A stretch of 64,000 nt of DNA from Oopsacas minuta (Eukaryota > Animalia > Porifera): assembly GCA_024704765.1 (NCBI GenBank), contig JAKMXF010000188.1, forward strand, positions 669,715-733,714. The letters run 5' to 3'. Below, piece by piece: positions 10,171 to 49,082 of the stretch (the first letter of the stretch is position 1; each line of letters begins with the position of its first letter). A model generated the notes under the pieces. It was not told the origin of the DNA, made no database searches, and saw nothing but the letters and a program-made list of their open reading frames with translations. Both the position numbers and the translations under genes were made by a program.

Positions 10171-11356
10171 CTCTAATAGCTTTGTAAATAACTTTATACG
10201 GATAAACAGGGATGTAGAATTCGATTTTGACATTTCAAAATGTCTAACAAGATTAGTAATAATACATTTTTCTTTCTTTGCTAAAATCGATATACGGATA
10301 AACAGGGACGTAATGTTTACCAAGATTAGTAGTAATACATTTTTCTTTCTTTGTTAAAATGGATATTTAGTAGAATAATTAATATTCGTAGTTTCAATAA
10401 TCCACTATAATTAATTTGGTAAATTTAAGACAGACGATAATTTGAGATTTTTACTACTTTGAATTGTCCAATTTATCTTCTATTTTTATGTTTTTAGCAA
10501 ATATGTTTGTCATGTATATTTTGAATTTTTTAATAATCTTCCCTTTCATTTAATCCTACCACTTAGTAAAACTGGAAGTTTCTAATAGTAATATTTCATT
10601 TTGATTTACCTAGTTTACTTATGTCGATTATTATTATTTCAGAAACAATCATTTGGTAAGAGTGTTCAATTTTCTACGGCTACTGTGCGAACACTTCGTA
10701 TACGCGACCCGAGCAGCGCAAGAAAGCGAAGCTTGCTTGTTTCAATAATTTCTGATTGGTCCTTAGCTGTCTCTGGCATAGCTCAGTGTATTATTTAATA
10801 GCAATTGTAACTAGTCAATCGGGTCGAGTAGAGTTTCATGTTTGACCGGTGGAAAACATTCAATATTGTGTAAGTATAGAAGCTGTTGTAAATACTCCCT
10901 GCCTCTATCATATGTATTTCCTAAGATATTTGGTGACTAAGGTAAAGTTTTGCACCTATGTATCGAGCTGACCGCCACAGTCCTATATAAATCCTTGAAA
11001 TTGTTTCATATTTTGGCGGGCTAATTCTTGGTTTCATTCATTATAAAGATTTTCAAGACTGTTAATGCATAATACAAGTGTAATTTGATGTTTGTAGCAC
11101 AATTTCCCATTCTTTTTTATTTGTAGGACTAATTGCAATCATATTTAAGACTGCCAGAAATGCTCTAATAAATTTAAGATATATATATATATGTGAAAAT
11201 ATTCAAAATACATTTGGGTACCAATCATAAATCATATTTTTGGAATATATATATTTTCACACCTCTTCATGTCAAGCAGTTCCGTTTCATAGAATAGGGA
11301 AGTATGATTTAAATCCATTACCATATTTATAATTCGTCTTAGCTTTCACACAACAA

Positions 11357-14300: not shown

Positions 14301-16326
14301 TTTGGTGAGGATATAGCTATTTTTTGTAAGAATTATGCATTTGCAAATCTTCGGAAAAAAAGGGGGTGGATAATATTATTAGGGTATGATAGAATATGCA
14401 AAAGATATATTGACAACTTGAGTACCTTTGGACATGGAAATTAGCCTAATACATCATTCGAAAGCAAATATGCGACTTACTATTACCAAATAATATATCT
14501 ATAGGGGCTAAGTCAAAGGAATTAGAAAATTCGGACAATTTAAAGTCAAGTTTGCGAAAGTGACACAGCAAAAATATAAAACTGCAAGGGTCAACTCGAA
14601 ATATTTTCAAATTTATGTCTCGCATTTTCCTGGAAAAGAGTAAAGGCAACTTTTGCCTTAGGTAGAAGTTGAAGCGACGATGTATACTTTTCTCGATCCG
14701 GCCTAATAACCACTGTATTGTCATTTCACTTCAACACTGATCATGAATGAATTAACAAATCCGGATACGTATTATACGGTATTGCTTTGAATAAGTGCCG
14801 GGGGTAGCACTACACGAAATAAGTAACCGCCAGAGCGCTTATTCAGAGCAATACGAAGGGCATTAGGATCGTACGATCACGATCGCGATACTTTTTTGAC
14901 GATCTGGCGACGATCGGCAACCATTGTTTTATTAAGGATCGGATGTAAGATCGCAATCCTTTTTTGCACAAAAATTTTCGATCATATTTTCGATCATTTT
15001 TGTACTTTGAATGCTACTATCATTAGCGTTTTGTATACTTAGGTTATTGTTCCAAATTTGTGTTCAACAATCAGTAATATTCGTTCGTAGAATGCGTTGA
15101 TTCTCCACCTAAGTTTCTTTTGGCATAAGAAATGATGTAACTATCAAAAATATATGTCTTGAATATTACACAAACGATCGGAAAAATGATCGAGATCGGG
15201 ATCGCGATCGTTTTGAGATAAGGATCTTGATCGGGATCGCGATCTTGTTTAACACGATCGACTAATGCCTTAGTAATACGTTACACTAATAACGCTATTT
15301 GTAATATACAATTGACAACAGCTATCTCGAACACAAAGAGCAGTTCAACTGTAATCCAAATATTATAAGTATAGGATGCTGATTTCTCTTTAGAGTTCGA
15401 GTTAGGGAAGTACGTATATCTGAACCCTGCATAGCAGTATTCCTTAATTTTATTTACTTATAGAATTTTCCATGGAGTGCTAATATCTGTACTACTCTCA
15501 ATTCTGAAAAGGATTTTGCTTATCTAGTTAGTCACCCAGCTGTTCTCTACACAGTATCAGGTGAGTAGTAGCAATAGACCATTTGGATCGATTCAAAAAA
15601 GGTAAAGTGTAATCTCGTTTGAGTAATTCCATCTTTCCCCAAAGGTTAACGCATGTTACCTCTATATCCCTATTGTCATGTCTACCTACCTACCTCCACC
15701 TCCTCTGCATTTAAGAATACATAATATATTCTCCAATCTTTAAAATTATAACTTTATTGAGTATTGGGCTACTGTTATTTATAGAGATTCAGCTCCACCC
15801 CCGCATCTGATTTAGCCTACTAATAATCAATATACTCAGTGTAATTCAGCTATTGGGTGTATAAGCTAGTTAAGAATACAATAGAGATGACGTCTAGAAT
15901 ATTATAATATTAAAATTGACATTTATATATTTTATGAATGAACCAATTTTCCCGTTGATTGTCACAAAATAAATAATTTTGTAATTAATCCTTCCTACCT
16001 TTCATACACATATTTATCAAACAGATGAATCGAAGTTTAACGAAGCTATGCAAATCCTGGATGCTGTCAGTAAGAAATTCATTGCTAACAAACCTCGGGA
16101 CGCAATAATCAATTTCTTCTGCTATGTCGATGACGAAAAGGCTAACAGTGCATGTAAGGAGTTCTTCCACAAGGGGTGTGGTGGTGTAGCAAATCAGGTG
16201 TTTATAATAGACCCTCAAGAGCAGATGAAGAACAAAGAACCTATCACAAAACTAGATGTGGACTCAATCTACACTCAAGCAATGTCGTACATTGAGGGAG
16301 AGCTCGATATGGTTAAAGTCGACTAA
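11357..16326 (+). CDS. NXN: Nucleoredoxin-like protein with tandem thioredoxin-fold (WCPPCR / WCPPCK) domains; at least 5 exons, one internal exon not located
   Basis: Exons 11357-11674 (MASGDV...[13 protein letters not shown]...[15 protein letters not shown]), 11735-11998 ([19 protein letters not shown]...[11 protein letters not shown]...YISAHW), 12291-12495 (CPPCKVFTP...[19 protein letters not shown]...), 12562-12650 ([16 protein letters not shown]...HDEKFE) and the terminal exon 16025-16326. The terminal exon resembles the nucleoredoxin C-terminal region: [17 protein letters not shown]...[11 protein letters not shown]. Order and spacing match vertebrate NXN. Exon 4 ends in phase 0 but the terminal exon needs phase 1, so at least one small exon is missing between 12651 and 16024. 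Confidence 0.72.
12833..14705. mobile_element. Foldback-type transposable element: two perfect 874-bp inverted arms (12833-13706, 13832-14705), a 125-bp unique spacer, and an 8-bp TSD ATAACCAC
   Basis: The arms are reverse-complement identical across all stretches checked. ORF pairs 12889-13092(+)/14446-14724(-) and 13438-13764(+)/13759-14100(-) translate identically. Arm termini are taggccggatcgag...ctcgatccggccta. The flanking direct repeat ataaccac sits at 12825-12832 and 14706-14713. Confidence 0.75.
14858..15269. mobile_element. Candidate non-autonomous DNA transposon / MITE with GATCG-rich subterminal repeats
   Basis: Imperfect TIRs ggcattag(-)gatcgt at 14858 and acgatcgactaatgcc ending at 15269. 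Both ends are packed with GATCG / CGATCGCGATC motifs. An adjacent 18-bp-stem hairpin lies at 14786-14858. No clear TSD was seen. Confidence 0.4.
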
Positions 16327-18097
16327 GTAAATTCTACCAAATATATATGTATGCGAGTGGTATTTCCTTTTAGTTAGCGGAGTGTATAGATATACTTTAT
16401 TTGAAGCTTATATTCTATCTAGTAGCTAGGCAACGTATAGTTTTTACCTAGCTTATATTTTCTGGAACTTTAATCATATATTAGACTTAGTGTTATCGTG
16501 TGTATTTAGGCCTTAATCTGTCTATTGATGAATTAGTTGAGAGTAGTTATGCATATATTTGGATATATTAGATTAAGGAAATTGTAGAAACTTCCAAATT
16601 GTATTGGAATTATAATATAAACAGTGGAAGTTATCAACTAATCATGTATTACCACCAGGGTTGCTGTGGGAATGTGATGGGAATGGGAATTGAAATTCCT
16701 TTCCCACGGCAACCCTGATTGCCACTTCTGTAGTATGTTCAAATATCATATGGTTTGTTTTCCGATAAATATATGACAAGCATTAAGTTAAACTGGATAT
16801 ACAGTGTTTTTGACTATTTCTTTACTAGCAACTCGTATTTTGATTTACGATATATTTGTGGCTTTGATTCATGTACTTTTTAGTAGTATGTATTTTTAAC
16901 AAAGTTTTTAAGCGATGCGACCTAATGTTGTGTTCAGAGGCTTAGCTAGGGTGCGACACATTAAATTACGTGTGCTCACCAAAATGAAATTGAAATGTAT
17001 TACGGATGCGGCCAGTAGCTCATATGACTGAGGTTGTTGTCAAAAATCCGGGAGGGGGCTTGTAAAATCAAAAGTGATAAATTCAGGCAAATATCCTGGA
17101 AATCGAGCATTTTCAGGGAAATTCTGGGGGAATACCCCCGGATTCCTTAGAGGGAACACTGGATGCGGAATTTCCGTACCTGCGCCACTTTGTTGCACCT
17201 ATTCCGCACTATCGTGTGGTCCTAGCTACGCCTCTGTCTCCACCTTCTGCTCCTAATTCCTAATATGTTACATAATTCTATAAATGAAAGACTCACAGCT
17301 TTATGTGGTATAGCGTGCCCTACGTAGAGCACAGATAGAGAAATTGAAGGTATAAATGATGCCACCAGTGACAATCTAGTATTAATTAGTATTGGAATAT
17401 CAATCAAACTGATAACTATTTTCTTATGAAAATATTCGAATTCAGATTCAATCGTGAGTTACTGGCTCCTAAACGTCCTTATTTACGTGTGTCTGCCTAA
17501 GTGAATTTCGGACCACAACAGTATTAAATGCTGAATTACAATTTTTACTGTACAGACTAATACAATTACATTGTATAGTGGCTCAGTTCAAAAATGGTTG
17601 ACTTAGTACAGCGGTTCCCAACCTGGGGTTCATGGACCCCTTGGTCTTTAGTGATCCACGGAAGATGCCAGGGGGTCCACAGAATGTGTTTGTTTTTACA
17701 ATTGGGCATAAATGCATAAAATTAGTTCTGGTGGAGTGTTTGTAATTTAATTAGAACTGGAATGTATTTGTATTTTCTTAGTTAAAATAGATATAGCATA
17801 ATTTCAATAATCCACTAAAATTAATTCGGTAAAATTTAAGTCGGCACCAGTCGGTGATTTTATGGTTCAAAATGATTCTTATTATTTTAGGCCAAAATCT
17901 ACCATATTTGGGTGTTTATGTGTTGGGATAACTACACTCATTATCCTTACATACAAATATCTATGTAATACTCTCCTGTGTTTGTTTATCACTTTATCAC
18001 TTGCCACTGAATTGTCACTCCACAAGTTTTGTTCAATTTATACCCAAAATTAAGATTGTTCTATCGCTCGTATATTAGCAAATTGACATTATTATCA

Positions 18098-20293
18098 ATG
18101 TCTAGTACCTCACACGCGTATCCACAGAGCTCAAGTCCAGCTGATCTGAGTGATGTTCATATTCTGCATAATGCTCAGTTATTAGTAAAAGAACCATGGA
18201 CTGCAAACAATGAAGGTATATCTCGAGGTGCTAAAATAAAATGGCTTGCTCAAATATGTCGTGGTAGAAAATTACAAAAAGATGCATTTATATTGAATCC
18301 TAATTGGCAAGAGGATATTCTCGTAGAGGTGCGTATCCTTCAAAAGCTCCAGCACACTTCTCTCTGCCACTATTTAGGTTTATTCTTCCCACCTGGTTCT
18401 ACCAGTCAGAAGATGCCTTATTTTGTATACGAGAATATTGGGTATCCGTTAAATCTGTACTTATATGAGAACGGGGCCGAACTACAGCCCCGAGTAAAAT
18501 CCGGTATTGCACTTGATATTTGCTCTGGCTTATCTTTCCTACATAGTAGGCAGGTGGTGCATCGTGGTATGTGTCCGGAAGCAGTTAACATTTATCAGAG
18601 CGGAGATTTCATGCGAGCTAAGATTACAGATCTCGGTGTAGCACGGTGTATTTCTGTGACAGCTCAACTTATTGGGAGCAAACATCAACCTTATATACCC
18701 TTAGAAGGTAAGGATCCAGACTATACACTACAACCTTCATGGGATGTGTATTCGTTTGGTATACTAGTTCTAGAATTATTAACTCAAGAAAAACCGCTAG
18801 GAGTAGAGACATTTATCGTGGATCCACAAACAAAGCATCAAGATGAAAAGTTCATTAAAGTTAGTCCGACTGAGCACATCCATATGTTACTTAGAATTGT
18901 TATGAAGGTACCAATGTATGTGCAGTATGGTTATCTAATACAAGAGTGTGTAAAATCTGATTATCAAAATAGGCCACTTACGATGTTTATTTTAGAAAAA
19001 ATACAAGAGATGCCAATTCAACAAGAAATGTTAAAAAACCAACTCAATCAAAGAGGTCCTACCAAAACAAACACTTTACCCTCCCCCTTACAGATTGATA
19101 AACAAGATAACGTTCCTAAATATGACGATCATATGCAGTATACTCTTTTGCAGTCTCCTTCTACTAACGGAACTACCAGTTTTGTGAATCCTATGACAAT
19201 AACAGATAATTTGAATTTATCAATGAACCACAAAATAGCACAAGATAACTTATTGAAACGATCTCTTTCAGAAGATGTAAGTGAATCTGTTGATAAGAGT
19301 ATTGGTCAGATTAGAAGGATGTCTGCACATTCTCAGGAGCATGATCATGTAGTTAACGAAGCAGAAGATTTCATATATTTATCACAATATCTAAGAGATA
19401 ATAGACATAGAAAATTACCGACCACGTTTGGACGTTGTATAGCATTAATCCACGACAACAAATTAGTATTATATGAGATAACTCAGGGAGAAATGTATGT
19501 CCTGGAGCCGAAAACGCAACAATGGAATGTTTTAGCCGACAAAATGCCCGTACGTCTGGGCGGGATCTGTGTGTATGGATCTAGGTTATATGTATTAGGC
19601 GGGTTTATAAAATCTAAAGGTGGATATGAAAATGCTGAGCAAAACAAACATATTTTCTGGTGTAAAATGACTGATAAAGATAATAAAGTTGTTCGATCAG
19701 ACCTTCCTGATACGTTATACTGCCATAAAGTGCCCTCTGTTGCTGTCTATAATGACTTCATACTTGTTATAGGAGGTGATACAAAGCGCAATTCTATTGA
19801 GGTCTACGACCCTAGACATGACCATTGGTACTTAAACACGTATATACCAAGCGACTCCAGAGGCAGTTTGGTTATAATGTCAGCTTGTGTTCGCGAAAAT
19901 TTATTATATCTAGCTCTGACTGATGAAAGGTCTCCTCCTACGTATATGTACAGTAGTTGTCTAGACACACTGTCTCAAGTTAAGAATAACACTCTAACAT
20001 GGAACAGATTCAATTCGCGAATACCTACTTGTAGTCCTAGACTAATTAGTTCAAAGAGTAAGATGTATGCTGTGGGAGGTGGTGGAGATTTCTCACGAAC
20101 TTCCTATGCTAAAGATGTGTATGGTTGGGATGAAGATGAGGATACCTGGGTGAAGACGACCTCTCTGAAGCAGGAGAGGAAATGCTGTGGAGTGTGCACT
20201 TTATTTGATGGGTCTATCTATGTTGCAGGGGGGAATTCGTACATGGAAACTCCTGATTACTTAGATATACAAGAGCTAGCGTTAATTCATTAA
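18098..20293 (+). CDS. Intronless protein-kinase-like (probable pseudokinase) + C-terminal Kelch beta-propeller protein
   Basis: Single ORF; the first in-frame ATG is at 18098. A kinase-like domain shows a subdomain IX motif DVYSFGILVLELLT and a DFG-like DLGVAR. However, HRD is replaced by HRG (VVHRGMCPEAVNIY) and no clear GxGxxG or VAIK lysine is present. The C-terminal half has repeated Kelch signatures (YVLGG, VIGGD, YAVGGGG, YVAGG, plus W/Y spacing). Confidence 0.65.
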   Translation: MSSTSHAYPQSSSPADLSDVHILHNAQLLVKEPWTANNEGISRGAKIKWLAQICRGRKLQKDAFILNPNWQEDILVEVRILQKLQHTSLCHYLGLFFPPGSTSQKMPYFVYENIGYPLNLYLYENGAELQPRVKSGIALDICSGLSFLHSRQVVHRGMCPEAVNIYQSGDFMRAKITDLGVARCISVTAQLIGSKHQPYIPLEGKDPDYTLQPSWDVYSFGILVLELLTQEKPLGVETFIVDPQTKHQDEKFIKVSPTEHIHMLLRIVMKVPMYVQYGYLIQECVKSDYQNRPLTMFILEKIQEMPIQQEMLKNQLNQRGPTKTNTLPSPLQIDKQDNVPKYDDHMQYTLLQSPSTNGTTSFVNPMTITDNLNLSMNHKIAQDNLLKRSLSEDVSESVDKSIGQIRRMSAHSQEHDHVVNEAEDFIYLSQYLRDNRHRKLPTTFGRCIALIHDNKLVLYEITQGEMYVLEPKTQQWNVLADKMPVRLGGICVYGSRLYVLGGFIKSKGGYENAEQNKHIFWCKMTDKDNKVVRSDLPDTLYCHKVPSVAVYNDFILVIGGDTKRNSIEVYDPRHDHWYLNTYIPSDSRGSLVIMSACVRENLLYLALTDERSPPTYMYSSCLDTLSQVKNNTLTWNRFNSRIPTCSPRLISSKSKMYAVGGGGDFSRTSYAKDVYGWDEDEDTWVKTTSLKQERKCCGVCTLFDGSIYVAGGNSYMETPDYLDIQELALIH

Positions 20294-25727: not shown

Positions 25728-28700
25728 ATGCAACTCTACTATCGCTTCCTGTTGATATCATGTCTACTGGGTACAACCTTTGGCATGCAGTTGTTGGGAG
25801 CTAACCGCTGCACCTGGGGTCCCAGCTGGTGGTGTATTAACGAAACTACTGCTAATGACTGCGGCGCAACACAACATTGTATTGATAATGTATGGCAGAT
25901 TCCAGCAACTAAGAAACAACAATCCAAGGCAATGGAAAACTTCCTTAAAAATCCTTTAGGTTTGCTACCAATCGGAATCATACCACAGCCCGAACATAGC
26001 GTAAGGTTAACTCAGGACGCGTGTGACACCTGTTTGAATCGAGTACTAGAAATTAAAATTCTTATCAAGGATAATGCTACTAGTGAGGGATTCGAGAAAC
26101 TTCTTATAAATGAATGCATTAAATGGTTTAACAACGAGGACTCTTGTTACGAAATAATATCACATTCCAGTGAAGCTATATTCAGCATTATCAAACGCTC
26201 ATCTCCTGAACAGGTGTGTGACTTGGTATTACAATGTGGCAACACATGTAGTGAATGTAAGAGCGGCGTAGTTGTTGTTGAGAAGGCTCTTAGTCAGAAT
26301 TTAACTGATCAGGAAATAGTATACTTATTTATTGAGTTTTGTGCTAAGCTAGGTCCATACTCAGGTGAGTGTAAAGCCGCGGTTACTTCACGAATGGATC
26401 TTGTTATTGACGATTTGATTGACTTCCTGCAAAATGATCCTTGTGGTAGCCTAGGTGCTTGTGACTCATCTCTTCAACTAGTTTCTTCTGATGTTGAATG
26501 TACACTTTGTCTGTTTATTTGGGAATATGTTGTACACGAAGTTTCTCTGAACTCAACTGAAGAAGAGATCAAGAATGCATTGAAAGAGATATGCCAATAT
26601 CTAGGCAAGTTGAAGGATATCTGCAGTAACTTTGTCGATACTAACGTAGGTGATATAATTGTTGACATATTGAATAATGAATCACCACACAAATTCTGCA
26701 CACAAATTAAAGCTTGTAATAGCTCCAGTACTTTCGCATTATCTCCTCTACCTAAGCAAACTACATCAGCTCTACTCTGCAGTGCTCTAGCTAGCATATT
26801 CCAATCATTATTCAGCACAGATCTAATTGTACGATCTTTAGTTCAGGTGTTCTATATGACATGTAACATGCTGCCTGATGACACAGCTGTGGAGAATTGT
26901 CAGTCCTTCGTTATGCTCTACGTAGCTGGTATCTTACAGATAATCAATGCTGCTCTCCCCGTATCATATCTATGTATTGCCTTCCTGGGGAATAACCCTA
27001 ACGCTATTTCCAATATATATGATAATTCCATAGAATTCAGCCCAGCAGTTCACGGAGAAATAGAATGCGCTATTTGTGAGCTAGTACTAGAAATAGTGAG
27101 AATGGATATAGATACTAACAAATCTGTTAAGGACATACAAAATGACGTCAACATGACATGTCAGTTGCTTCCTGAAGGGACAATCAGAAAGGATTGTGAA
27201 TCAGGTGTTCTATTAGTCCCAGTTGTGTTAGATCTGCTAGCTCATAATTGTGTTCCGCATGAAATTTGCTATGTCCTTACTGCATGTCCAAATAACTCCT
27301 CTATAGAGACAACAACACTTGCTAAGCATGCCACACAGGTTGAGAGTTTTGATGTAACTTGTTTCGCCTGTAAAACGGGTGTTCAGCTGACGTTCTCATT
27401 CCTCGCCAGCAACCACACTGTGCAAGAAATGATATATATTATAAACGGTCTCTGTACTATAGTTAGTCCTAATTATGGATGTGAGGGGTTTCTCCAGGAT
27501 CTACTACCTCCACTATTGAATTATCTGCAGCAACAGTTCTCTCCTGAAGAGGTGTGTATAGGTATTGGGATGTGTCAGAATGATGAGGTAGGAGGCTACA
27601 CCGTGGATAAGAATGCTCCTATTGAAGAGAGTGAAGATATAGGATGTCTTGTATGTAGTGCATTAGCTACTTTACTTGATGATTACACTGGGTCTTATAG
27701 TGAAAATACAATAATTAGCGTTGCTAGTGCTTTGTGTAATCAGTTCGGTGAGTTTAGTGATGAGTGTAAAACTATCGTAGCGAATAACTTACCTAATATT
27801 ATCGAAAAACTGAGAGCTGGAGAATCTCCACAACAACTATGTGCTGAGGTTAAACTATGTCAGGCTGTTACATCTCGTGTCTCTGCCTCGCTAATGAAGG
27901 TTATAGCTGATAAAGATGAGGATCAGTGTGACACGTGTTTGGATGGTATTGACAGTATAAAGAGCATGTTAGCTAATAAGGGAGAAGATTATACTAAAGA
28001 CTATCTAATACAACAATGTATTGCTGCGTATTCTAAGATTATCTGTAATGAAGCTATTTCTCATTTGATTAAGATTATTCAGACCGGAGAGGATCCTTCT
28101 GATATCTGCTCTCAGCTAAATTTATGCAGTCTTGAGCCTGGATTGGAAAGTTATATTGATTGTGATACTTGTTTGAAATACGGGAAAGAATTAGAAAACA
28201 GAATAACTGATGAGACTTCTCAAGACGATTTTGATGATATTTTGTTCAATGTTTGCAGGCAGAATGCGAGTAAAACGATTTGTAAAATAGTTGTTAAACG
28301 GTTCTCTCAAGAACTCTTCAAACTAATGGTTACTCAGGGACAGAGCTACGAGCAAATATGTAAAGAAATGGCTGATTGTTCTGTTAGCTCTCCCTCTTTT
28401 GAAGTGAGTAGTAATACTATGTACTGTGCCGAATGCAAGTTTATTATAATGATAACTAAGCAAGCTATTTCTAAAACCAGTGAAGAAGATATTGAAAAGT
28501 ATTTAGATACCCTTTGTAATATGCTTGGAGAAAATCAGTATGAACAATGTAAGTATTTACTCGACTCTTTTATCAGCAAACTTTACGAAATTCTCAATGG
28601 TGATATGAGTGTTACTGAATTATGTGAAGAAATCAATGCTTGTTCCTCGCAACAGGTTACTTTACAGAAAACCTACTTACAACTCTGGGAGGAGTTGCAG

Positions 28701-28976
28701 CAGTCTCCCAGCACTGATTGTATCCTCTGCACTTGGATTAGTCAGTCTATACATCCACAGCTAATTGATATGTATTCGCATGAATCTTTGAAGTACAAAC
28801 TAGCTTCCAAATGCGCTAAACTACCTTTACATAATCAAGCTAGTTGCGAGGAGTTTGTTGAGAACAATTATTTCATTTCTGCTCTTAAGTCCAACTCCAA
28901 TTCTCCTATCTGTCAAGCTATTAATATCTGTCAGGGCAAGTCTAGAACTCCGGCTGGGTTTTCTCTTTTCATTTAA
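25728..28976 (+). CDS. Prosaposin-like secreted protein: signal peptide, N-terminal saposin-A-type domain and about 10 saposin-B-type domains; intronless
   Basis: 1082-aa ORF starting MQLYYRFLLISCLLGTTFG (signal-peptide-like). A SapA-like CTWGPSWWCINETTANDCGATQHC follows. Ten repeats each open with CxxC and carry the six-Cys saposin-B spacing (CDTCL, CSECK, CTLCL, CAICE, CFACK, CLVCS, CDTCL, CDTCL, CAECK, CILCT), each followed by ...C...C...C...C. Confidence 0.82.
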   Translation: MQLYYRFLLISCLLGTTFGMQLLGANRCTWGPSWWCINETTANDCGATQHCIDNVWQIPATKKQQSKAMENFLKNPLGLLPIGIIPQPEHSVRLTQDACDTCLNRVLEIKILIKDNATSEGFEKLLINECIKWFNNEDSCYEIISHSSEAIFSIIKRSSPEQVCDLVLQCGNTCSECKSGVVVVEKALSQNLTDQEIVYLFIEFCAKLGPYSGECKAAVTSRMDLVIDDLIDFLQNDPCGSLGACDSSLQLVSSDVECTLCLFIWEYVVHEVSLNSTEEEIKNALKEICQYLGKLKDICSNFVDTNVGDIIVDILNNESPHKFCTQIKACNSSSTFALSPLPKQTTSALLCSALASIFQSLFSTDLIVRSLVQVFYMTCNMLPDDTAVENCQSFVMLYVAGILQIINAALPVSYLCIAFLGNNPNAISNIYDNSIEFSPAVHGEIECAICELVLEIVRMDIDTNKSVKDIQNDVNMTCQLLPEGTIRKDCESGVLLVPVVLDLLAHNCVPHEICYVLTACPNNSSIETTTLAKHATQVESFDVTCFACKTGVQLTFSFLASNHTVQEMIYIINGLCTIVSPNYGCEGFLQDLLPPLLNYLQQQFSPEEVCIGIGMCQNDEVGGYTVDKNAPIEESEDIGCLVCSALATLLDDYTGSYSENTIISVASALCNQFGEFSDECKTIVANNLPNIIEKLRAGESPQQLCAEVKLCQAVTSRVSASLMKVIADKDEDQCDTCLDGIDSIKSMLANKGEDYTKDYLIQQCIAAYSKIICNEAISHLIKIIQTGEDPSDICSQLNLCSLEPGLESYIDCDTCLKYGKELENRITDETSQDDFDDILFNVCRQNASKTICKIVVKRFSQELFKLMVTQGQSYEQICKEMADCSVSSPSFEVSSNTMYCAECKFIIMITKQAISKTSEEDIEKYLDTLCNMLGENQYEQCKYLLDSFISKLYEILNGDMSVTELCEEINACSSQQVTLQKTYLQLWEELQQSPSTDCILCTWISQSIHPQLIDMYSHESLKYKLASKCAKLPLHNQASCEEFVENNYFISALKSNSNSPICQAINICQGKSRTPAGFSLFI

Positions 28977-30186: not shown

Positions 30187-30757
30187 GAAACAAACGTAAT
30201 CCAATATACTGTAAACAAACGTAATCCAATATACTGTAAACAAACGTAATCCAATATACTGTAAACAAACGTAATCCAATATACTGTAAACAAACGTAAT
30301 CCAATATACTGTAAACAAACGTAATCCAATATACTGTAAACAAACGTAATCCAATATACTGTATACAAACGTAATCCAATATACTGTAAACAAACGTAAT
30401 CCAATATACTGTAAACAAACGTAATCCAATATACTGTAAACAAACGTAATCCAATATACTGTAAACAAACGTAATCCAATATACTGTATACAAACGTAAT
30501 CCAATATACTGTAAACAAACGTAATCCAATATACTGTAAACAAACGTAATCCAATATACTGTAAACAAACGTAATCCAATATACTGTAAACAAACGTAAT
30601 CCAATATACTGTAAACAAACGTAATCCAATATACTGTAAACAAACGTAATCCAATATACTGTAAACAAACGTAATCCAATATACTGTAAACAAACGTAAT
30701 CCAATATACTGTAAACAAACGTAATCCAATATACTGTATACAAACGTAATCCAATAT
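30187..30757. repeat. Minisatellite: 25-bp unit AAACAAACGTAATCCAATATACTGT in about 23 tandem copies
   Basis: Direct reading of the sequence. Copies are near-identical, with a recurring A-to-T variant (tgtatacaaacg) at copies spaced 5 and 10 units apart (30361, 30486, 30736). The three overlapping minus-strand ORFs here are frame artefacts. Confidence 0.95.
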
Positions 30758-31896: not shown

Positions 31897-34800
31897 GCTC
31901 TTTTAGGTCACAATGTATTAATATTCGCTTACGGTGTAACTAATGCTGGTAAGACCTACACTATGGCTGGTACTCGATCTAATCCAGGAGTTCTTCCACG
32001 AGCTCTCGACAGTATCTTCCAAGCAATAGAGCACCAACAACCTACTAACATATTTTACAAACCTAGAGGTGAGGCTATACATACTTATTTATTATTATAC
32101 GAGCCGCTTCGCTTATTTGCGGTTTGCGAACATTTTGTGTCCACATGGGACTCGGCAATTCATGCCTCGAAGTTAGCAAAGTAGTAAATTGCAAAATTGA
32201 ATTGATGAATTAATATTCCTATTTGTTTTACTTTATATTCATAAAAACAACCAAAAATTTACATATGATTAATTCAAAAGTGTTAAAATCAGATTCAGCA
32301 CTTTCGATATATTTTTGCCAAGTTTTATTCAATTTTGTATACTTTCTTGGTATACAGCCATAGTTGGGCGACATCTCAGTATTGAGAAATCAGAATTCAA
32401 TACAATATTGCATAAATCCTTTCCTTGACAACAGACAAATAGACAAACAAACAAGCAAATATGGCAATTTAATAATATACAGGGTACCTCAAAAGTTCTG
32501 CAACAAATTTTTACACCAATTTTTTATATCAAACCATAATTCAACTGCTGTTAAATTCATACTTATGGACAAAGGCTATATAATATATTCAATAAACTGT
32601 GATAGTTCAATTCTGGTCTTTTGTTATGTCAGGTATATCTGAACTACAGAAGAGGTCTCCTATTATTCATTTATTTCTAAATGGTAAGAAGCAGAATCAA
32701 ATTCTAAAAGCCCTTGGTTCACCGAAATTTTCACCATCGTTGATATCCCACACGATAAAACGATATATTGAGACAGGCGATATCGTAGATAAGCAACGAT
32801 CAGGTCGGCCAAGAACAATTAGGACTCCTGCTAACAAGAAAAAGGTTCGTCAGATTTTAACTCGTCGGCCCACGATGTCGGAATAGATAAGGAATCTGCT
32901 CGACGAATAATCAAGAAAGACTTAGGTATGAAATGTTTCAAACGAAGTAGAGTAGAGTCTCTTAATGGCCAGGGAATTAATAAGAGAATCCAAAGATGTC
33001 GTAGACTGCTGGATCGACTCAAAAATGTCAACAGTGATTCAATTGTATTTTCGGATGAGAAGATCTTCTGTATTGAGGAGAAGTGGAACTCTCAAAAATT
33101 CGCGGGTTTATTCCTTAACACGTAATGACATCCCAGAAAACTTAAGAAGTGTCCAGAAATTACAACACCCAAAAGTATTATGGTGGGCGGGAATTTCAGT
33201 TTTTGGGAAAACTCCGTTAGTATTCATACCCAAAGGTACAAAAATTAATGCTCAGGTATACAAAGATATTATACTGGAGAAACATGTCTTAGCAATTGGT
33301 TTGACCTTCATGAAAAACAAGGCATGGCTATTTCAACAGGATGGTGCACCGGCTCATACCGCTAAAATATCTCAAGATTGGTTGTCAAGTAAGATCCCAG
33401 CGTGTTTGAACCGTGACGAATGGCCCCCTTCAAGTCCTGACCTAAACCCTTGTGATTATTATTTGTGGGGAAGACTAGAGACACTAGTAAACAATAGATC
33501 CCACAACAGTATTCCAGCACTAAAACGAGCGTTAGAGAAAGCTTGATGCGAATTAGATCAGGATGAGGTCGCTCGGGCATGCAAATTATTTCTATCCAGA
33601 CTTAAAGATTGTCTGAAGGCCGGAGGGAATAGATTTGAAAACAAGTAGAGCCAAATATTTTCGTATATGATAGTTAGACATAATAGCATTTTCTTAACAA
33701 AATATTAGTCTGGTTATATGCTTTACATGTATAAGAATTACATTTAAATTTTGTTGCAAAACTTTTGAGACCCCCTGTAGATTATTGATTATGCTTTAAT
33801 CGTTGCGAATCTTACGATATTGCCCCACTCTGTTATCCCTGGCCTTCTAAAAGTAAACCTGTGAACTATGCTTCAATTCAGAGAAATTAATATAATATAC
33901 GGTGTACCTGCATAAACCGATACTCGTTTGGGACATGAAAATTTTGTCGGATTATGCAGGTGAATTTGTATTGTCGAATGCTGTTTCAGATCCGAAACTC
34001 TGTGTCGGATTATAAGGTGTTCTGGATTATAAGGTGTTCTGGATTATAAAGGTGTCGGTTTATGCAGGTTCCACTGTAGTCATAATATATAGGGGCTCAT
34101 AGATTTGCATCGCTAAAATAATCGATTTTGATGCTTCCTGAAATAACGAATTGTAGATTTGGCTAATCATATCAAATAGTTCGATTTTTTAGAGTAAAAT
34201 ATATACATTAACTCTGCCCGCTACTGATATAACATTACCTTATATTAAACATAAAGCAGCTGTGTTGCATGTGTTTTAGAAGTCACAATATGAACTATTT
34301 CTGTAGCTTTAATGCTTTATATACATACATGCATTATTATCCCTAATTCATACTTTTCCGTGATTTTTGATATTTAATGGCTCTCTTACAATTATATAGG
34401 GTTCGCTAATACAGTACGACTAGATAGAGAGAGTGCAGATCATGAAGCAGTTAAAAAGCGCAAGTTCTTGTCCAGAAAACTAACTAGACATAATCTTATT
34501 TCTGATCTAAGCAAGCTGTCAGATGGCACTGATTCTCAGACCTCCACTATATTCTCTACTCACCCTAGTGACCAGGAAATGGGAGAATCCTTAAAAAGCT
34601 CTAGAATTAATCCAGATCCCTTAGACTGTAGGTAGGTATATCTCTTAATATAAATTGCTGTAATTCGGCATAACATTCCATAATTAATTGGATTCATTAT
34701 ATATTGTAGTGCTCTGGAGATGGAGCACAATGAAGCTAGCTATTCAATATGGGTATCCTTTGTGGAGATACATAACGAATCGATATACGACCTGCTAGAT

Positions 34801-41779: not shown

Positions 41780-43321
41780 TCTCTCACTAAATACAGAATT
41801 TAGAATTTTGACTAGAACTCATTTCTTTTCTCTATAGTGATTCTTATGCACAAAGTACAAGTACATGTAGTAATCAGTGTACATCTTTGTATTCTGTTGA
41901 ACGAATGAATTCAAATAAGGTTATTCTGTGATATTAATATAGTGGAACCTCCAAAAGCGGGGTAAGTAAACTTCAACTAACATCAATTTTTATCCAAATG
42001 GACTTCTGAACAAGGAAGCAGGGAAAGATATTTGGTACCCAATCAGGCTATCTACAGTACCCGCTTCGGAAGGTCCCACTGTATTTATTTTTATCGGTTA
42101 ATTCATGAAATGATGTACGTACACACTTTGGAGTTCCATAACTTAAATCATGTACCCTGCTAGTGGTAATAGGCCCAGAGCAGTGGCGGATACTTTTGAA
42201 TTATTGGGGGTGCTCAACAAATTAACCAAAATTGATTTCCTATGAGAGCACTAAATTGTATTTATCGAGAATACCTATAGCTATCTTTTCAACTTGATCA
42301 CAAATGTATACTTTGTGCACAATTATCAAACTTAAATAAAACTTTTCTTCGCCCACACTTTCACCGAAAATATTGGCCAGTGGCACTAGGGGGTGGTCAA
42401 GCACCCCCTAGTGCCACTGGCCATGACGTAGGAAATTAAACGGGTATTTTGGTCACATGTTTGTTCTTGGTTTGTGTCAGTGTTACTATACAACCATCAG
42501 TGCATCTTGCTACTCAACCATAAGAGTAGCAGACATTATGTATTATTATATCCCTTTTAAACATCCTTTTCCAAACAATTTTTGCTTACATGCGATAATT
42601 GCTTCTTGAGGGATGGAAATGTGCAGTTAATCGCTTTTGATCACTAAATTCTGGTGATTATTTTGGACATTACTGCAATATTCATTCATATCTATCAATC
42701 AATGTATTGTCAATTCATACATTCAGTAATTAGTTATGGGATTACTTATATGTCGGCTAGTTGACAAATAAGTAATTATGGCCGACTTATAAGGATTTAG
42801 CCGCATATAAGTAATCCCATTAGTTATTAGTTTTCTTCTTTTGAAACATGCTGAGTGGAGCTGACTTAACAACAGAAGAACACCTTGTCTTTCATTTGCT
42901 CCTGGTAAGCCAGATCCTGGACCTCTCCTGCTCTTAGCTCGGCGAGATTAAAATACACATATAAGTACAGTACTCCCGTCTGACTATTTATCCTCAATTC
43001 TTGAGGTTTTGTGCATGATGAAGTGTTGCATTTATGGGAATTTAGTATTAACTGTTTCCATGCAACATGCTTTGTTGAGAAGCACCCAAACCTTTTATAA
43101 CAATACCTATTAACTTTTGATGTAACAAAGCAACTAAATGATCGAAAGTGACCAGTTTAACCTTCCACGCTTAGTTGTATAAATTAGTTGATTAAATTAT
43201 CTAAGATAAGTAAGATTGCTTTGTGAATTTGTGAAAGCATCAAGTTACCATAAGGGATGATACCAAGGGATTGTGAATAAACTGATTGTACCTTATTTGT
43301 TTGTAGTATTTGTGTTTTAAA

Positions 43322-44623
43322 ATGGTCCCAGACAACTCAAATGATTTTTTGTATATCAAGAAAGTTAAAGAAACCCAAGATCTGTATTATGGGTACAATA
43401 GGGAATATTTAGCTCAGAACTTAACAGAAATGGAAGAAGAATTTATTGTTTGTAAGAAGTGTACAGGAATAATGCGAGAAGCTTCTATTTGTAGAGGAGA
43501 TATAACTTGTTTGATTTGTAGTGAAACTCCCGACAAACTCAATCCAGTTAAAGCTGTGCAAAGTTCTATCTCAAAATTAGTGATAAAATGTCCTCTCCTC
43601 AGAGACTGTCATTGGAAGGGACAACTGTCTGAAGCTGAAGAACATATGGAAAATTGTATACATATATTAATTCAATGTAAATATTGTAAAGAAATATTTG
43701 CCAGAAAAGAGAGTGACGAGCATAACGTTAACATATGTCCAATGCGGTTAATCAATTGTCGAAACTGCAATAAAAGGGGCAAAGCTGAGCACCTGGAGGA
43801 ACATTATGAAGTTTGCTTACATTTGTCAATTTCTTGTCCTAATAATTGTGGAGGAAAGCTCCTCAGAAGTGAATTATCTATACACAAAAGGAAATGTGAA
43901 TTAGAAACGATTAGCTGTCCCTATACAGAGTATGGCTGTGAAACAGGCTTAATGATGAGAAAAGATCTCATAGCTCACAAGAAGCAGTATATGGTGGAAC
44001 ATACCGACATGAGTTTATTGAAGATTGAAAAACTTAGCTCTCAAGTGGATAAACTCCAAATTGAAAACACGGATTTACAGAGAGAAAAGAAAGAGATGGA
44101 ATGGGCAGGAAAGGCAATGAAGCAACTTGATGGAGTTGAGTGGAAAATAGAGAATTTGGATGAATTAACTGAGAAACAGACATTTATAGAAGGACCAACA
44201 TTTTATGTCAACAATTACAGACTGAGAATATATTGTAAATATATTGTTGGTGGATTTGGTGAGAAAATCTTACAATTCTATCTCAAGAGGATTGAAGGAG
44301 AATTTGATGACGATTTAGGACAAGCTTGTATATGCCATTACAGAGTGATTATTGTGAATACACAAAATTACACTAAATCACATTATAAAGAAGGAAGAAT
44401 GAATTTTCAGCTCACCTTTAAAATGAAGAGTTCTAACATATTTACTGCATCACCTCTGTCGCACAATAGCTATCTTATAGCTAATAATTCTTTGCTTCTA
44501 CGATTCTACTTTGACATCAACACTACTGAACCTTTGACAAGTTTGACACCTAAAAAGTCTGCAAATTCACAGGATTATGCTACAAAGGTACATCCTACTG
44601 AGAAGAAGGATCCTTTTCTTTAA
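43322..44623 (+). CDS. TRAF-family protein (Cys/His TRAF-type zinc fingers, coiled coil, C-terminal MATH/TRAF-C domain), intronless
   Basis: Single ORF; first ATG at 43322. Repeated C-x-C/H-x-C zinc-finger spacing appears (CKKCTG...CLIC..., CPLLRDCHW...H..NC, CKYCKEIF...H..NIC, CRNCNKRG..H..H...C, CPNNCGG...H...C, CPYTEYGC). A coiled coil follows (LLKIEKLSSQVDKLQIENTDLQREKKEME). The MATH-domain start WKIENLDELTEKQTFIEGPTFYVNNYRLRIYCKY is present. Confidence 0.78.
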   Translation: MVPDNSNDFLYIKKVKETQDLYYGYNREYLAQNLTEMEEEFIVCKKCTGIMREASICRGDITCLICSETPDKLNPVKAVQSSISKLVIKCPLLRDCHWKGQLSEAEEHMENCIHILIQCKYCKEIFARKESDEHNVNICPMRLINCRNCNKRGKAEHLEEHYEVCLHLSISCPNNCGGKLLRSELSIHKRKCELETISCPYTEYGCETGLMMRKDLIAHKKQYMVEHTDMSLLKIEKLSSQVDKLQIENTDLQREKKEMEWAGKAMKQLDGVEWKIENLDELTEKQTFIEGPTFYVNNYRLRIYCKYIVGGFGEKILQFYLKRIEGEFDDDLGQACICHYRVIIVNTQNYTKSHYKEGRMNFQLTFKMKSSNIFTASPLSHNSYLIANNSLLLRFYFDINTTEPLTSLTPKKSANSQDYATKVHPTEKKDPFL

Positions 44624-44785
44624 CTAATTGGACTTGATTATTTTGTAATTAAGTTTTTTACTATGCAGACTAAACTATACCCAGTATAGTGGCTCAGTAC
44701 TAAAAGGTTGACTTTTCTTAGCATATATGTGTGTGTTCACTCTCCACTTCACACCTTTTGAGATTAACACACAAAATTGGCATGT

Positions 44786-45054
44786 ACAGTACACCCTCGC
44801 TAATCCGAACACCACTGTTACGATTGCAAAATAATACGTCGGATTAACAAATGCATTGAAAAATACTATAGAATCTGGGAGGACTTTTTTCGAAAGTGTA
44901 CAAACGATGGAATGGGGCCTAACATGCGTAATATCGTATTAGATATTGATTTGTTGTAGAATTGGATATATATCGGCTATGTTTTTACGTTTGAAACAAT
45001 TTTCAAAAAGATTGTATAAGCTTAGGCCCTTTTCAGATTAGCGAGGGTCTGCTG
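44786..45054. mobile_element. Tc1-like MITE (about 270 bp) with TA TSD; TIR CAG(T/C)A(C/G)ACCCTCGCTAATC
   Basis: Left cagtacaccctcgctaatccgaa at 44786. Right ...ttcagattagcgagggtctgctg ending at 45054. TA on both flanks. A solo left-end copy lies at 48057-48090. Confidence 0.5.
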
Positions 45055-45411
45055 TATATTCGTAGTGACATCTAATAGAGCATCTGACATTTGAAATTTT
45101 TGTAATATGTAGATATTTTCACAACTTTTAGGTGATTAATCATATTTTCATACATGTCTCGCTAAATTTGTACCTTCCAGCGTTTTCCTTCACTCAGGTT
45201 GGCAAGTATACAAATGTCAAAATAGTATAAGTGTGAATATAATTATATATTGCCAAAACGCATCAGATCTATTTTAATTCCGAATACAATTTGACAATGA
45301 TACTCAAAATTATTTACTGTCAATCAAAGTATAAACACCGTCATCAGTAATTACTATAATTGGGTAATAACCACCATTAGAATACAAAAGATAAATAATG
45401 AGATAGAGAAT

Positions 45412-47469
45412 TTAGAATATTTGTAGACAGTTGTCGACCTTCATGTCACCATATGTGATAATGCCAGTTTTTTCTATGAATATGCAAGAGGGACGGAATG
45501 TTTGACACAGCCCATGTCCTGTCTCACAAACTGTTTCTATGAATTTCCCATCCAAGTCGAAAACTTTGATGGAATTGTCCCAGAAATCACATATGTAGAT
45601 TCTCACTTCATCTGTGTTAGGATTTTGGAACAGGTTGAAGTTATATGCTCCTGCTATCTGATCCTCCGTGAGTATGGACTTTATGAGTTTTCCTTGTAGA
45701 GAGAACATTTGGAGAGGAGAGGGAGATCCTGTGAAGAGACATATGACGTAATCATTAGTAGTCTTCATGTCCTGTAGCCATGGATACCTGTTCGTTATCT
45801 TTGTATGCAGGATTGGTTTTAGTGGATATTCTTGATCTTTACCGAGAGGATCTAGTTGCATTCGTATTAGACTCGGCTTGAGAGTCCCCACATACAAATG
45901 CTTACTGTTAGAGGTTGTGCAACAAGCCTGTGGTATTTGGAAAGTATGTTCAAGTTTCATGTCAGATATAAGCTGACTATCTTTCCATGTGAAGCTGAAT
46001 CGTGATAGCGAACTACTTGTAGAATAGCACACGAATACAAACTGATTGAAGTTGGCCAATGAGGCTGGAGTAACCAGTGAATGAGGATGATGATACCATT
46101 CTGTAGCTGCAAGATCAATTGCTCTGTAGCGTGAGACTGTATCCCCGTATCTATCCCCTACTATTACGTTTTCTTTAATAACGATTACACTAGTGGGCGT
46201 GTCTAATTGGTGACCCTCAACTCCACCTCTATCAACACCAGATGCTACAGGAATGTTTCTCTCTGCTTTGGGTGGAGCTACTTGCATGGGCTTGTTATCA
46301 GTGTCGATCACAATTGAAGGAATGTTTATCCTGTTGGTGTAATAGTGACGGATCTTTCTAAGTACTATATCATATATTTGCTTTAATTCCTTATCGTCTT
46401 CATTCTTCCTGACAAGATATTCTAGCGACCTAGCGTCTCTGTACAGGAAAGAAAGTTCCTTGAATGTGAAAATCACATCCTTTTCAATTCTTTCCTGTAC
46501 AGTCTCTATCACTCTGCATTTCCTTTCTATATCATCTGCATTCCTAGTTTCCAATTCGTCTCTAGCTATCGCATACTCCATCTTAAGTCTGTTAAGCCTC
46601 AGGTCATACTCCTGACGTGTGATACCCCCGGGAAGTAGGTCTCTCTTGGACGGTTTTATAGGTTTCATGTCTTTCTCTATTTCAGGATCTACATAGAAAA
46701 TGAATTCACCCTCTATTACGTGTGTCAATCCCTCTTTCATAACTTTTGAACACCAATGCTCTGGAATGGGATAATTTCTCATCTTTAAGATCTCTTTCTT
46801 CAGTCTCAGTCTTAAAGATTCGTATCTGTTTACAATTATACTCTCGATTTGTTTGGGAAGTTCAATGCTTAGTTGGTTCTGAATTTTATAAATCTTTTTC
46901 TCAGCTGTCACCTTCCACATAATGAGACCGTTTAGGGAGTACAGAGAAGGTTCTGCTAGAGTTCTCTCTATATAGAAGAGGCTCTCTTTGTATTCGATAG
47001 GGAGCCAATTATTGATAACTAGTAGAGTTATTTTCTTTAAATGATGGTTGTATCGCTCCGTGAGGGAATTTCTGGATGGGACAGGGACTATTTTACTTTT
47101 TATTTTAGTATCAAATTCATTGTAAAAATGTGGTAGCTTGTTTAGAATCTTTTCGCCTAACTTTTGGTTGAATGGGACTATCATCCGTTCCATCTTCATG
47201 ACAACAGTTGATATCCATTCAATCATTTTGTACTCCTTGATTATGACGCAGAAGCGATCCTTTACAGAGTCACGCATTTCTGTGGACAGTATTGAAGCCT
47301 CTTTGGAGTATAGCGTTTCCATTTCCAACTCAAATCCTTTAATCAATTTTCGAATTTCGCTAACTTCGATTGCTTCCAAGTCAATGGACCTAATTTCCTT
47401 CAACCTATCCTCATACCTTTTGAACATCTCAGAATTTGATGGTGTTACCTGGTTCAGGTTTGTTGCCAT
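45412..47469 (-). CDS. Coiled-coil protein with degenerate NHL-like C-terminal repeats; a paralog of the gene at 1-744; intronless
   Basis: 685-aa ORF. It shares the MATN... start and the motif PV(A/V)SG(V)..GGVEG with the gene at 1-744. The C-terminus has an NHL-like YICDFWDNSIKVFDLDGKFIETV (compare YVADKSNNRVQTFNEYGKYLFKF). The long N-terminus is coiled-coil-like. Confidence 0.6.
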   Translation of the reverse strand: MATNLNQVTPSNSEMFKRYEDRLKEIRSIDLEAIEVSEIRKLIKGFELEMETLYSKEASILSTEMRDSVKDRFCVIIKEYKMIEWISTVVMKMERMIVPFNQKLGEKILNKLPHFYNEFDTKIKSKIVPVPSRNSLTERYNHHLKKITLLVINNWLPIEYKESLFYIERTLAEPSLYSLNGLIMWKVTAEKKIYKIQNQLSIELPKQIESIIVNRYESLRLRLKKEILKMRNYPIPEHWCSKVMKEGLTHVIEGEFIFYVDPEIEKDMKPIKPSKRDLLPGGITRQEYDLRLNRLKMEYAIARDELETRNADDIERKCRVIETVQERIEKDVIFTFKELSFLYRDARSLEYLVRKNEDDKELKQIYDIVLRKIRHYYTNRINIPSIVIDTDNKPMQVAPPKAERNIPVASGVDRGGVEGHQLDTPTSVIVIKENVIVGDRYGDTVSRYRAIDLAATEWYHHPHSLVTPASLANFNQFVFVCYSTSSSLSRFSFTWKDSQLISDMKLEHTFQIPQACCTTSNSKHLYVGTLKPSLIRMQLDPLGKDQEYPLKPILHTKITNRYPWLQDMKTTNDYVICLFTGSPSPLQMFSLQGKLIKSILTEDQIAGAYNFNLFQNPNTDEVRIYICDFWDNSIKVFDLDGKFIETVCETGHGLCQTFRPSCIFIEKTGIITYGDMKVDNCLQIF

Positions 47470-49082
47470 TTCAAATATACTTTTAAGTCAGTTTAGATTT
47501 TCGTTAATAGAAATATTGTAGCAATTCTTTTTATAGAAATATTTCTTCTTCATAATTTGAAGATAAATTAAGTTATACTTTTAATGTGAAGTAATGTGTT
47601 TCAGAATGTGGCTTACTCGAAACAATTGATTACACAATTGTTTATTCTGAAAATCATACATTTCTGAAACTGAAATGATTAGAAATGTTGTTTGTAAGAA
47701 TTTATTCATTTCCGAGATCACTTCATGTACGTACATACATACATTAACCAGAAACGTAAAGTTTAGGGCATAGAGAATAAATACCTGTAACTCCAAAACT
47801 GATGGAGTTATACTATGTTAGGCCGGTTTTAATTTGGATGGTGGACAAATGTTCACTGTCGACCAACTTTGAACCGTTAAAACCTTAAAATCCATCAGTT
47901 TGGTAAGTATAGGTTCATGTTCAGATTCTATCAAATACCCTGCCGAATTTTTGCTGTGACCTCCGATTAGTTTTCCAATTAAGCGAAGTGGAATATAATG
48001 TTCGTATAAAAATGCGAAATGCCATATATTTATTTCTACGAAAGTCAAATTCAATACAGAACACCCTCGCTAATCCGAACAACACTATTCCAGTTACAAA
48101 ATAAATCTTTCGAATTAGTGAATTGCATTGAGTCCAGCGGCGTTGGAAGCGAATTTCAAGTGAGGGGGGCCGATTTCTGAATTCAAATAAGTGTTAATAA
48201 ACAATGTATTTATGTAAAGAAAATACATTTTTTGGGTCTCCTGAGATAAGAGACGCTATTTGGTAATTACATTAAAAATATTGTCTAGGTCAAGGCTTTT
48301 GATATGGCGGATCAACCCCATTTTTGACACACCGGACATTTGCCAATACACCCGTGCAACTGTTCCAGCTTTGCAATCCACTACAAGTGGCGCTCCTACC
48401 TAACTAACAAGTAACAACACCGGTCTATGTTATGTGATTCTCTATCTTTGATAGAAATCTGATGATATTGTATTAGCATTTTATAATTAGATGCAAAGAT
48501 ATTTCAAGTACTGTGTCTATTCCCGTTGTCAGGGTAACATTTGATTATCGATTCTCTCTCAAAATTATAATTTTAGTTACAGGTATAATAGAATTCATCA
48601 ATTTGTAATGCAATCTAAATTTAGATTCTTTGGAAAAGTGATAGGTATCAGGTTCTGGTAGCAGTAGGTATTCTGTTTCACTAGCTGGAGTATCTCTTAT
48701 TATTATAAATCACTTTTACAAGAGAATGCCTTTTTATTTATCTTTGTTATCTGTCTTACCTCCCATCTCTATTCATTCTATTCTGCACTCAACCAACATC
48801 AGAAAAATATTGACAGTAGTCCTGATTCTAGATTTCTAATATTAGCATACCTCTTCTAATAATTTTTTGGGATCTTCGAAAAATCCCCTGAAATTATTAT
48901 CCAATCCAGGGATCCCGAGTGGGTTATCAAGTATGTTTAGGTATAAATTTCTACTGTCTAGCTGTCCCTTGATATTCTAATCCAGAGTCTACTATACTCA
49001 CTGGTATTGAAGACAATAATCTCTGTATACAATTAGTAGGGCTTATTTAGTTTGTATTCAGTTTATTGATTTAGTGTGTAGA

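Follow-up and report, generated by a model that had tools for sequence, protein, structure and literature searches.

A diverged NHL-propeller protein with a new N-terminal region beside a RING-less TRAF gene in the glass sponge Oopsacas minuta

The locus and gene X

In a stretch of 64,000 nucleotides from the glass sponge Oopsacas minuta (assembly GCA_024704765.1, contig JAKMXF010000188.1, positions 669,715 to 733,714 of the forward strand), called the window here at its full length, two genes converge tail to tail: a TRAF gene on the plus strand and, on the minus strand, a gene which we refer to as X (Table 1), with 788 bp between their stop codons. The initial annotation of the window, made from the sequence alone, had described an intronless pair at these coordinates, and both open reading frames (ORFs) were indeed found to be uninterrupted. 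A third gene, at the left edge of the window, encodes a coiled coil followed by NHL repeats and is referred to, together with its relatives, as CC-NHL. The products of all three genes are 100% identical to NCBI proteins of O. minuta (Hexactinellida), namely P0223 for TRAF, P0001 for X and P0103 for the CC-NHL gene. While the TRAF and CC-NHL genes belong to known kinds, the new aspect is X, in which an NHL propeller is joined to a novel N-terminal architecture. The X family is mildly interesting, and the TRAF-X pairing itself looks incidental.

Table 1. Coordinates of the genes, predicted protein regions and the repeat element discussed in the text (window positions; aa, amino acids)
Feature	Position	Strand	Remarks
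Coiled-coil + NHL gene (CC-NHL), first 248 codons of the 411-aa P0103	1..744	-	C-terminal 163 codons lie past the left window edge
Single-exon TRAF gene	43322..44623	+	433 aa; uninterrupted ORF from 43310/43322
TRAF-type zinc-finger region, ~residues 71-221	43532..43984	+	Pfam zf-TRAF, 2 stretches, best 161-211
Helical linker, TRAF-N-like, probable coiled coil, ~residues 225-270	43994..44131	+	Heptad-like LLKIEKLSSQVDKLQIENTDLQREKKEMEW, read by eye
MATH / TRAF-C domain, residues 273-381	44138..44464	+	Pfam MATH_2
Element of 278 bp resembling a miniature inverted-repeat transposable element, with 28-nt terminal inverted repeats (TACAGTACACCCTCGCTAATCCGAA...)	44782..45059		Inverted repeat 86% complementary
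Gene X, single-exon, 685 aa + stop	45412..47469	-	Uninterrupted ORF; LOD99_2125 'hypothetical protein'
X residues 416-685, degenerate six-bladed NHL beta-propeller (predicted)	45415..46224	-	
X residues 158-415, conserved core specific to the family, helical with two small beta-hairpins (predicted)	46225..46998	-	
X residues 1-157, variable N-terminal helical module (predicted), resembles a spectrin-type three-helix bundle	46999..47469	-	

In regard to the gene model of X, the NCBI protein P0001 (LOD99_2125, 636 aa) covers 93% of the ORF and starts at Met50. The 49 residues that it leaves out (47323-47469) are conserved, and since paralogues beginning with MATNMSQVTPS align from residue 1 of X, the full ORF of 685 codons is a better model than the NCBI one, which starts 49 codons late. 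X has neither a signal peptide nor a hydrophobic N-terminus and is therefore probably cytosolic.

The family of X comprises 15 O. minuta models (61-70% identity to X) and ~85 proteins (41-56%) from the ENA assemblies ERZ25072730 and ERZ25069837, which presumably represent other glass sponges and from which all comparison loci mentioned below were taken. Family members mostly begin with MAT, and three X genes are found within 22 kb in each of the ENA loci L001, L002 and L003. Because the matches come from no named non-hexactinellid source, the family is, as far as sequence comparison goes, apparently limited to glass sponges. No Pfam family was matched by X itself at E<=1. RING and B-box domains were likewise absent by Pfam from all 25 family members inspected and from 10 longer ones, and no RING or B-box pattern was seen upstream of X (all such upstream scans in this work used regular-expression patterns). 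For relatives of 860-990 aa, a Pfam search for RING, death, TIR and TRAF domains yielded nothing but noise below the threshold.

Tandem, mostly single-exon, lineage-specific expansions have already been described from glass-sponge genomes (PMC10282587). In O. minuta and in the two ENA assemblies, the TRAF, CC-NHL and X families are all strongly expanded, mostly in the form of tandem arrays. The locus tags of five X paralogues (LOD99_16020-16053) bracket LOD99_16049, the gene named as the O. minuta counterpart of a 50-gene single-exon tandem expansion of AIG1/GIMAP in Aphrocallistes vastus (PMC10282587), and this bracketing suggests shared 'expansion islands'. No relevant mention of NHL, TRAF or TRIM genes was found in either glass-sponge genome paper. 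The single-exon structure is no peculiarity of TRAF or X, since the O. minuta genome (61 Mb, 36% guanine-cytosine (GC) content, 16,413 genes) averages only 1.59 introns per gene (PMC10280926), which makes intronless genes the norm.

The propeller and the N-terminal region of X

By family profile and predicted fold, X ends in a diverged NHL propeller of the TRIM-NHL type. A profile built from 25 full-length members matched the NHL domains of TRIM2, TRIM3, TRIM71 and Thin with E~6e-17, essentially through the last blade. The sequence of X on its own gave no match to the Pfam NHL family PF01436 above the gathering score, an outcome on which the initial annotation had been ready to give up the NHL assignment of this product, while 14 of the 25 relatives reached PF01436 at E<=0.01 (best 5.7e-6). 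Thus, a single-sequence hit is lacking, as literally stated, and the family profile, the relatives and the fold all say NHL. In the AlphaFold2 model computed from the family alignment (mean predicted local distance difference test (pLDDT) 83.9), the stretch 425-684 is folded into six blades with 23 strands in total. In Foldseek, this part matched best to NHL domains, those of Lin41/TRIM71, TRIM2, TRIM3, Thin, Brat and Mei-P26, at E values from 1e-11 to 1e-9, and the template modelling (TM) score to the closest structures, those of TRIM71 and TRIM2, is 0.72-0.74 when normalised by the target. Brat and LIN-41 bind RNA through a basic face. The net charge of the X propeller is -5, so RNA binding of the Brat/LIN-41 kind is weakly disfavoured.

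The N-terminal half of X, which had initially been taken for a coiled coil, has a different appearance in the model. Predicted separately (pLDDT 84.6, predicted TM score (pTM) 0.71), residues 1-415 take the form of ~13 short packed helices together with two small beta-hairpins, which is no simple coiled coil. Conservation along the protein is uneven. Residues 1-157 are the least conserved part, with a mean pairwise identity of 0.32-0.40, and the core formed by residues 158-415 is the most conserved one (0.58-0.77), followed by the propeller (0.45-0.75). The core holds several motifs rich in invariant positions, which read YPIPEPWCS, GEFIFxV, RDxLPGG, NRIxIPS and APPKxERN. In some relatives, the N-terminal module of ~150 residues is repeated in-frame up to 4-5 times. 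Genes with 4-5 such repeats lie at 13321-17148 (-) in L002 and at 10001-13372 (+) in L003, with products of 1275 and 1123 aa. These two loci, on contigs of 495,209 and 491,764 bp, show mirror-image identical gene order and are probably haplotigs.

Relatives of this region outside the family were looked for in several ways. Foldseek gave no significant match in the PDB (best E 0.5, generic helical matches only), no profile match was obtained among PDB sequences, and no Pfam match was present in 35 family members. When 1.84 billion protein cluster representatives were searched exhaustively with a profile, just 73 proteins came back, all of them X family members or fragments. As judged by these searches, the 415 N-terminal residues without detectable relatives are the unusual element of the finding.

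The neighbouring genes and their relation to X

The TRAF gene largely agrees with its first description. Its zinc fingers and MATH domain were confirmed by Pfam, the former as zf-TRAF PF02176 (52 bits against a cut-off of 27, E 1.2e-13) and the latter as MATH_2 PF22486 (33 bits against 32, E 8.4e-8), which passes only narrowly, and the helical linker between them was recognised by eye. Residues 71-165 align to the zinc fingers of TRAF6 with E 8.5e-6. No RING was found, either by regular expression in the protein and 3 kb upstream or by Pfam, and N-terminal of the zinc fingers there are just two CxxC knuckles, at residues 44 and 63. The NCBI counterpart P0223, named 'TRAF4-like isoform X2' (457 aa), has 24 extra N-terminal residues derived from a putative upstream exon (43250-43321) that is not found in homologues. 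As these homologues begin with MASKLVP or MACKLQP, the ATG at 43322, already proposed as the start, is favoured over the annotated upstream exon, and by this comparison P0223 looks wrong at its N-terminus. The TRAF clade is expanded, with 9-10 O. minuta models and dozens of TRAFs overall. In the ENA loci L004 and L006, stretches of 21 kb hold arrays of at least four TRAF genes, and a fifth zf-TRAF gene call is located at the edge of the locus.

The gene at the left edge encodes a protein that begins at the same MATN as P0103, which is annotated as 'TRIM71 isoform X3'. Its in-window part matches the NHL repeat with E 3e-11 (Pfam), and the complete P0103 reaches 97.8 bits for NHL and matches the TRIM71 NHL domain with E 7.5e-58. 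As the missing part of the gene is its C-terminus, everything upstream of it lies inside the window, and the 3.7 kb (745-4454, minus strand) between its ATG and the upstream ALIX gene are free of RING and B-box patterns. Aligned relatives (25 proteins of ~380-431 aa) all start with MAT and all match NHL, four of them match PF25600 TRIM_CC, and none has a RING or B-box by Pfam. With the upstream sequence clean over 3-3.7 kb and with homologues from independent gene calls starting at the same methionine, the view that neither NHL gene of the window carries a RING or B-box is upheld. What did not hold is the notion that RING-less CC-NHL proteins are unusual. They are very common in the glass-sponge lineage, where the family includes hundreds of proteins of ~410 aa, and a search with the product of this gene gave 464 proteins at E<=0.001, the tail of which includes generic NHL proteins.

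X and this gene had been regarded as local paralogues with a common MATN start, whereas our comparison indicates that they are related only distantly, through their propellers. BLASTP between the two products gave E=0.005 over 87 aa only. Aligning X with the CC-NHL family by hhalign gave a probability of 96.5%, E 8.7e-10 and 21% identity between X residues 406-675 and CC-NHL residues 150-404, which corresponds to the propeller only. The two genes are 44 kb apart and separated by at least eight unrelated genes, including ALIX, kinase-kelch, IFT52 and prosaposin-like genes, and the MATN they have in common amounts to four residues at the starts of two families that mostly begin with MAT. Since both families exist separately in the ENA assemblies, their split predates the divergence of O. 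minuta and the ENA lineages. Consequently, of the proposal that local paralogy points to a lineage-specific expansion, the expansion is borne out by family sizes and by tandem arrays elsewhere, and the local paralogy is not. In L005, the closest relative of X in the ENA assembly (P0011, 10001-12058, 52% identity) is found ~9 kb from a 418-aa NHL-repeat gene (1-812), probably of the CC-NHL family, an arrangement that echoes the window with both families within 47 kb.

It could still be argued that X is a long paralogue of the CC-NHL/TRIM-NHL family whose N-terminal half is an elongated TRIM-type coiled coil. The two propellers are homologous, both proteins are RING-less, single-exon products with a MAT start and a similar hydrophobic C-terminus, and the N-terminal half of X is nearly all helix. 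However, hhalign aligns nothing N-terminal of the propeller, TRIM_CC is matched by none of the 25 X members as opposed to the four CC-NHL proteins, the model contains no single long hairpin coiled coil, and the core is conserved more than the propeller, unlike in a generic coiled coil. We therefore hold such an origin to be improbable. Even less credit is given to the idea that X is a decaying, non-functional duplicate or an annotation artefact, for which one could cite its failure to match Pfam, the substitution of two near-invariant positions (RNYPIPEHW against the consensus RTYPIPEPW), the N-terminal truncation of the NCBI model and the repeat-element fragments on both flanks. Against this, an ORF of 685 codons is intact in DNA of 35% GC, X can be aligned with its relatives over the full length and retains over 100 invariant residues, and its fold is predicted with confidence (pLDDT 84), which makes decay very hard to believe.

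As to the pairing, TRAF and X are probably two independent, intact single-exon genes from expanded families whose adjacency is incidental. By tblastn, no TRAF was found within 10 kb of X in L001, L002, L003 and L005, no X was found within 10 kb of TRAF in L004 and L006, and on the sole ENA contig that has both, the arrays are ~200 kb apart. The functional link between TRAF and NHL proteins that had been suggested initially is weak, given no adjacency in six related loci and only one further co-location in O. minuta. An alternative, in which the two genes form a functional sensor-adaptor pair, with the X propeller sensing a ligand and X recruiting TRAF via MATH, appears unlikely, yet a number of observations speak for it and weigh against an incidental pairing. 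In addition to the short convergent spacing, the further co-location is P0087, a 757-aa gene model on another O. minuta scaffold (825,488 bp), which joins a TRAF part (zinc fingers and MATH) to X residues ~113-430 and could be taken as a Rosetta-stone-type hint. With ~15 X and ~10 TRAF models among 16,413 genes, only ~0.02 chance adjacencies would be expected, and because P0087 gives a second one, co-location may be non-random. Finally, 20 of the 25 members have kept a TRAF2-type motif, [PSAT]x[QE]E, at the position of X residue 284. Each of these points has its counterweight. The TRAF part of P0087 belongs to a different subfamily, with no more than 27% identity to the TRAF of the window, and P0087 lacks the first ~110 residues of X as well as the propeller, as in a merged or degenerate model. 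To judge from its sequence, P0087 looks like two neighbouring genes merged into one model or like a degenerate copy, a real chimera being the other option, and it would in any case imply a second co-location. The estimate of ~0.02 ignores that expanded families share non-syntenic 'islands' (PMC10282587), which inflates co-location. The motif was rejected as evidence for TRAF binding, being too degenerate, with 3.3 occurrences per protein on average, and the copy at residue 284 begins a helix.

The element resembling a miniature inverted-repeat transposable element (MITE) occupies part of the spacer that separates the stop codons of TRAF and X and belongs to neither gene. The 20-nt core of its terminal inverted repeat occurs 3 times in the window, as compared to 0 expected, and at 48054-48125, ~600 bp upstream of X, its 5' end is present once more in truncated form, so that inverted copies of the terminus bracket X. 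We considered whether X could be a captured gene within a composite transposon (inverted termini 45032-45057 and 48054-48079) and rejected this, as one arm is a complete MITE-like element and the other a truncated copy. No target-site duplication or further structure was seen.

The window as a whole has a GC content of 34-36% and numerous long uninterrupted ORFs of typical animal proteins. Its gene complement includes the C-terminus of ALIX, a kinase-kelch gene, IFT52, a prosaposin-like gene, major vault protein (MVP) and HOOK, the last two downstream of the TRAF-X pair. The kinase-kelch gene, at 18029-20293 (+), is a single-exon ORF of 754 aa with a protein-kinase domain (94-322) and a C-terminal Kelch beta-propeller (513-738), an uncommon architecture. 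The prosaposin-like protein, encoded by a single exon at 25728-28976 (+), has 1082 aa and contains a SapA domain as well as numerous repeats of the saposin B type. A near-perfect tandem array at 30188-30757, built of 22.8 copies of a 25-bp unit, AAACAAACGTAATCCAATATACTGT, with 99% match, creates three spurious minus-strand ORFs of ~200 aa. At 32965-33546 (+), a 193-aa ORF has a weak DDE_3 match (E 7e-5, under the Pfam cut-off) and is read as a remnant of a Tc1/mariner-type transposase.

Possible roles and comparison with known systems

In regard to the mechanism leading to such an arrangement, duplicated single-exon genes were probably inserted among conserved genes, such as MVP and HOOK, and so brought TRAF and X side by side in a compact, intron-poor genome. 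Functional roles for the two products can be inferred from their domain families. RING is required for the E3 activity of TRAF proteins, and TRAF1 is without a RING, in contrast to TRAF2 and TRAF6. Lacking a RING, the window TRAF would be no E3 ligase itself and most likely a trimerising adaptor or regulator, with its MATH domain docking peptide motifs like TRAF1. X would most likely be a cytosolic scaffold or sensor. Its propeller could present the ligand-binding face, and the ligand, given the negative charge, would more probably be protein than RNA. The conserved core may carry a common function in effector docking or oligomerisation, and the variable, duplicable N-terminal module may serve for spacing or for specificity. 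The CC-NHL family would combine an NHL propeller like that of TRIM71 with a TRIM-type coiled coil and have shed both RING and B-box.

With its many copies, tandem arrays and single-exon genes, the X family would, by analogy, be in line with the recognition and immune repertoires of invertebrates. A far-reaching version of this thought is that X proteins are glass-sponge-specific cytosolic immune or self/non-self sensors, in which a diversifying propeller and N-terminal module would be wired via the new helical domain to RING-less TRAFs, an independent invention analogous to the expansions of TRIM and NLR proteins in other animals, with P0087 and the window adjacency as traces of the coupling. 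We consider this scenario doubtful. Glass sponges belong to an early branch of the animals and are syncytial. Should X act as a sensor or as a scaffold in signalling, the core would constitute a novel protein domain and offer a handle on the recognition repertoires of the earliest animals. Otherwise, the X family would add one more case of hypothetical proteins expanded in a single lineage, with the correction of two gene models as its main use. Taken together, the three expanded RING-less families show a lineage in which the binding and scaffold modules of TRIM and TRAF proteins were multiplied and the ubiquitin-ligase modules dropped.

Each of the three genes has its parallels among known systems. 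The window TRAF resembles the RING-less type represented by the TRAF1-like architecture of vertebrates in that it is likewise devoid of a RING, having the two CxxC knuckles instead. By sequence its nearest TRAFs are TRAF6 and TRAF4, through their zinc fingers, and unlike TRAF1-like proteins it sits in a tandemly expanded sponge clade. Expansions of TRAF families as such are already known. With the AIG1/GIMAP cluster of A. vastus, X shares lineage-specific, mostly single-exon, tandemly clustered and non-syntenic behaviour. The protein families are different, and X was described in neither of the glass-sponge genome papers. The N-terminal module of X bears only a generic fold resemblance to the three-helix-bundle repeats of spectrin and plakin proteins, to which it shows 5-10% identity, without sequence-level or Foldseek support.

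For NHL proteins without the usual TRIM modules, Brat (no RING) and NHLRC1/Malin (RING and NHL only) provide a precedent for both NHL genes of the window, and the origin of NHL proteins from TRIMs by deletion of N-terminal modules has been described (Marin 2012, PMC3503706). The CC-NHL family differs from Brat and Malin in having lost both RING and B-box, and in its size of ~410 aa and very many copies, while X, besides this double loss, has the new N-terminal region. The TRIM-NHL proteins (TRIM class VII/subfamily C, with TRIM71/LIN-41, TRIM2, TRIM3, Thin, Brat and Mei-P26) have the six-bladed C-terminal propeller in common with X and the CC-NHL gene, and the RING, B-box and filamin domains are absent from both genes of the window. 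Compared to these proteins, X has a degenerate propeller with a clear NHL signature in the last blade only, and the RING, B-box and coiled-coil (RBCC) part appears to be replaced by an unrelated helical region of 415 residues.

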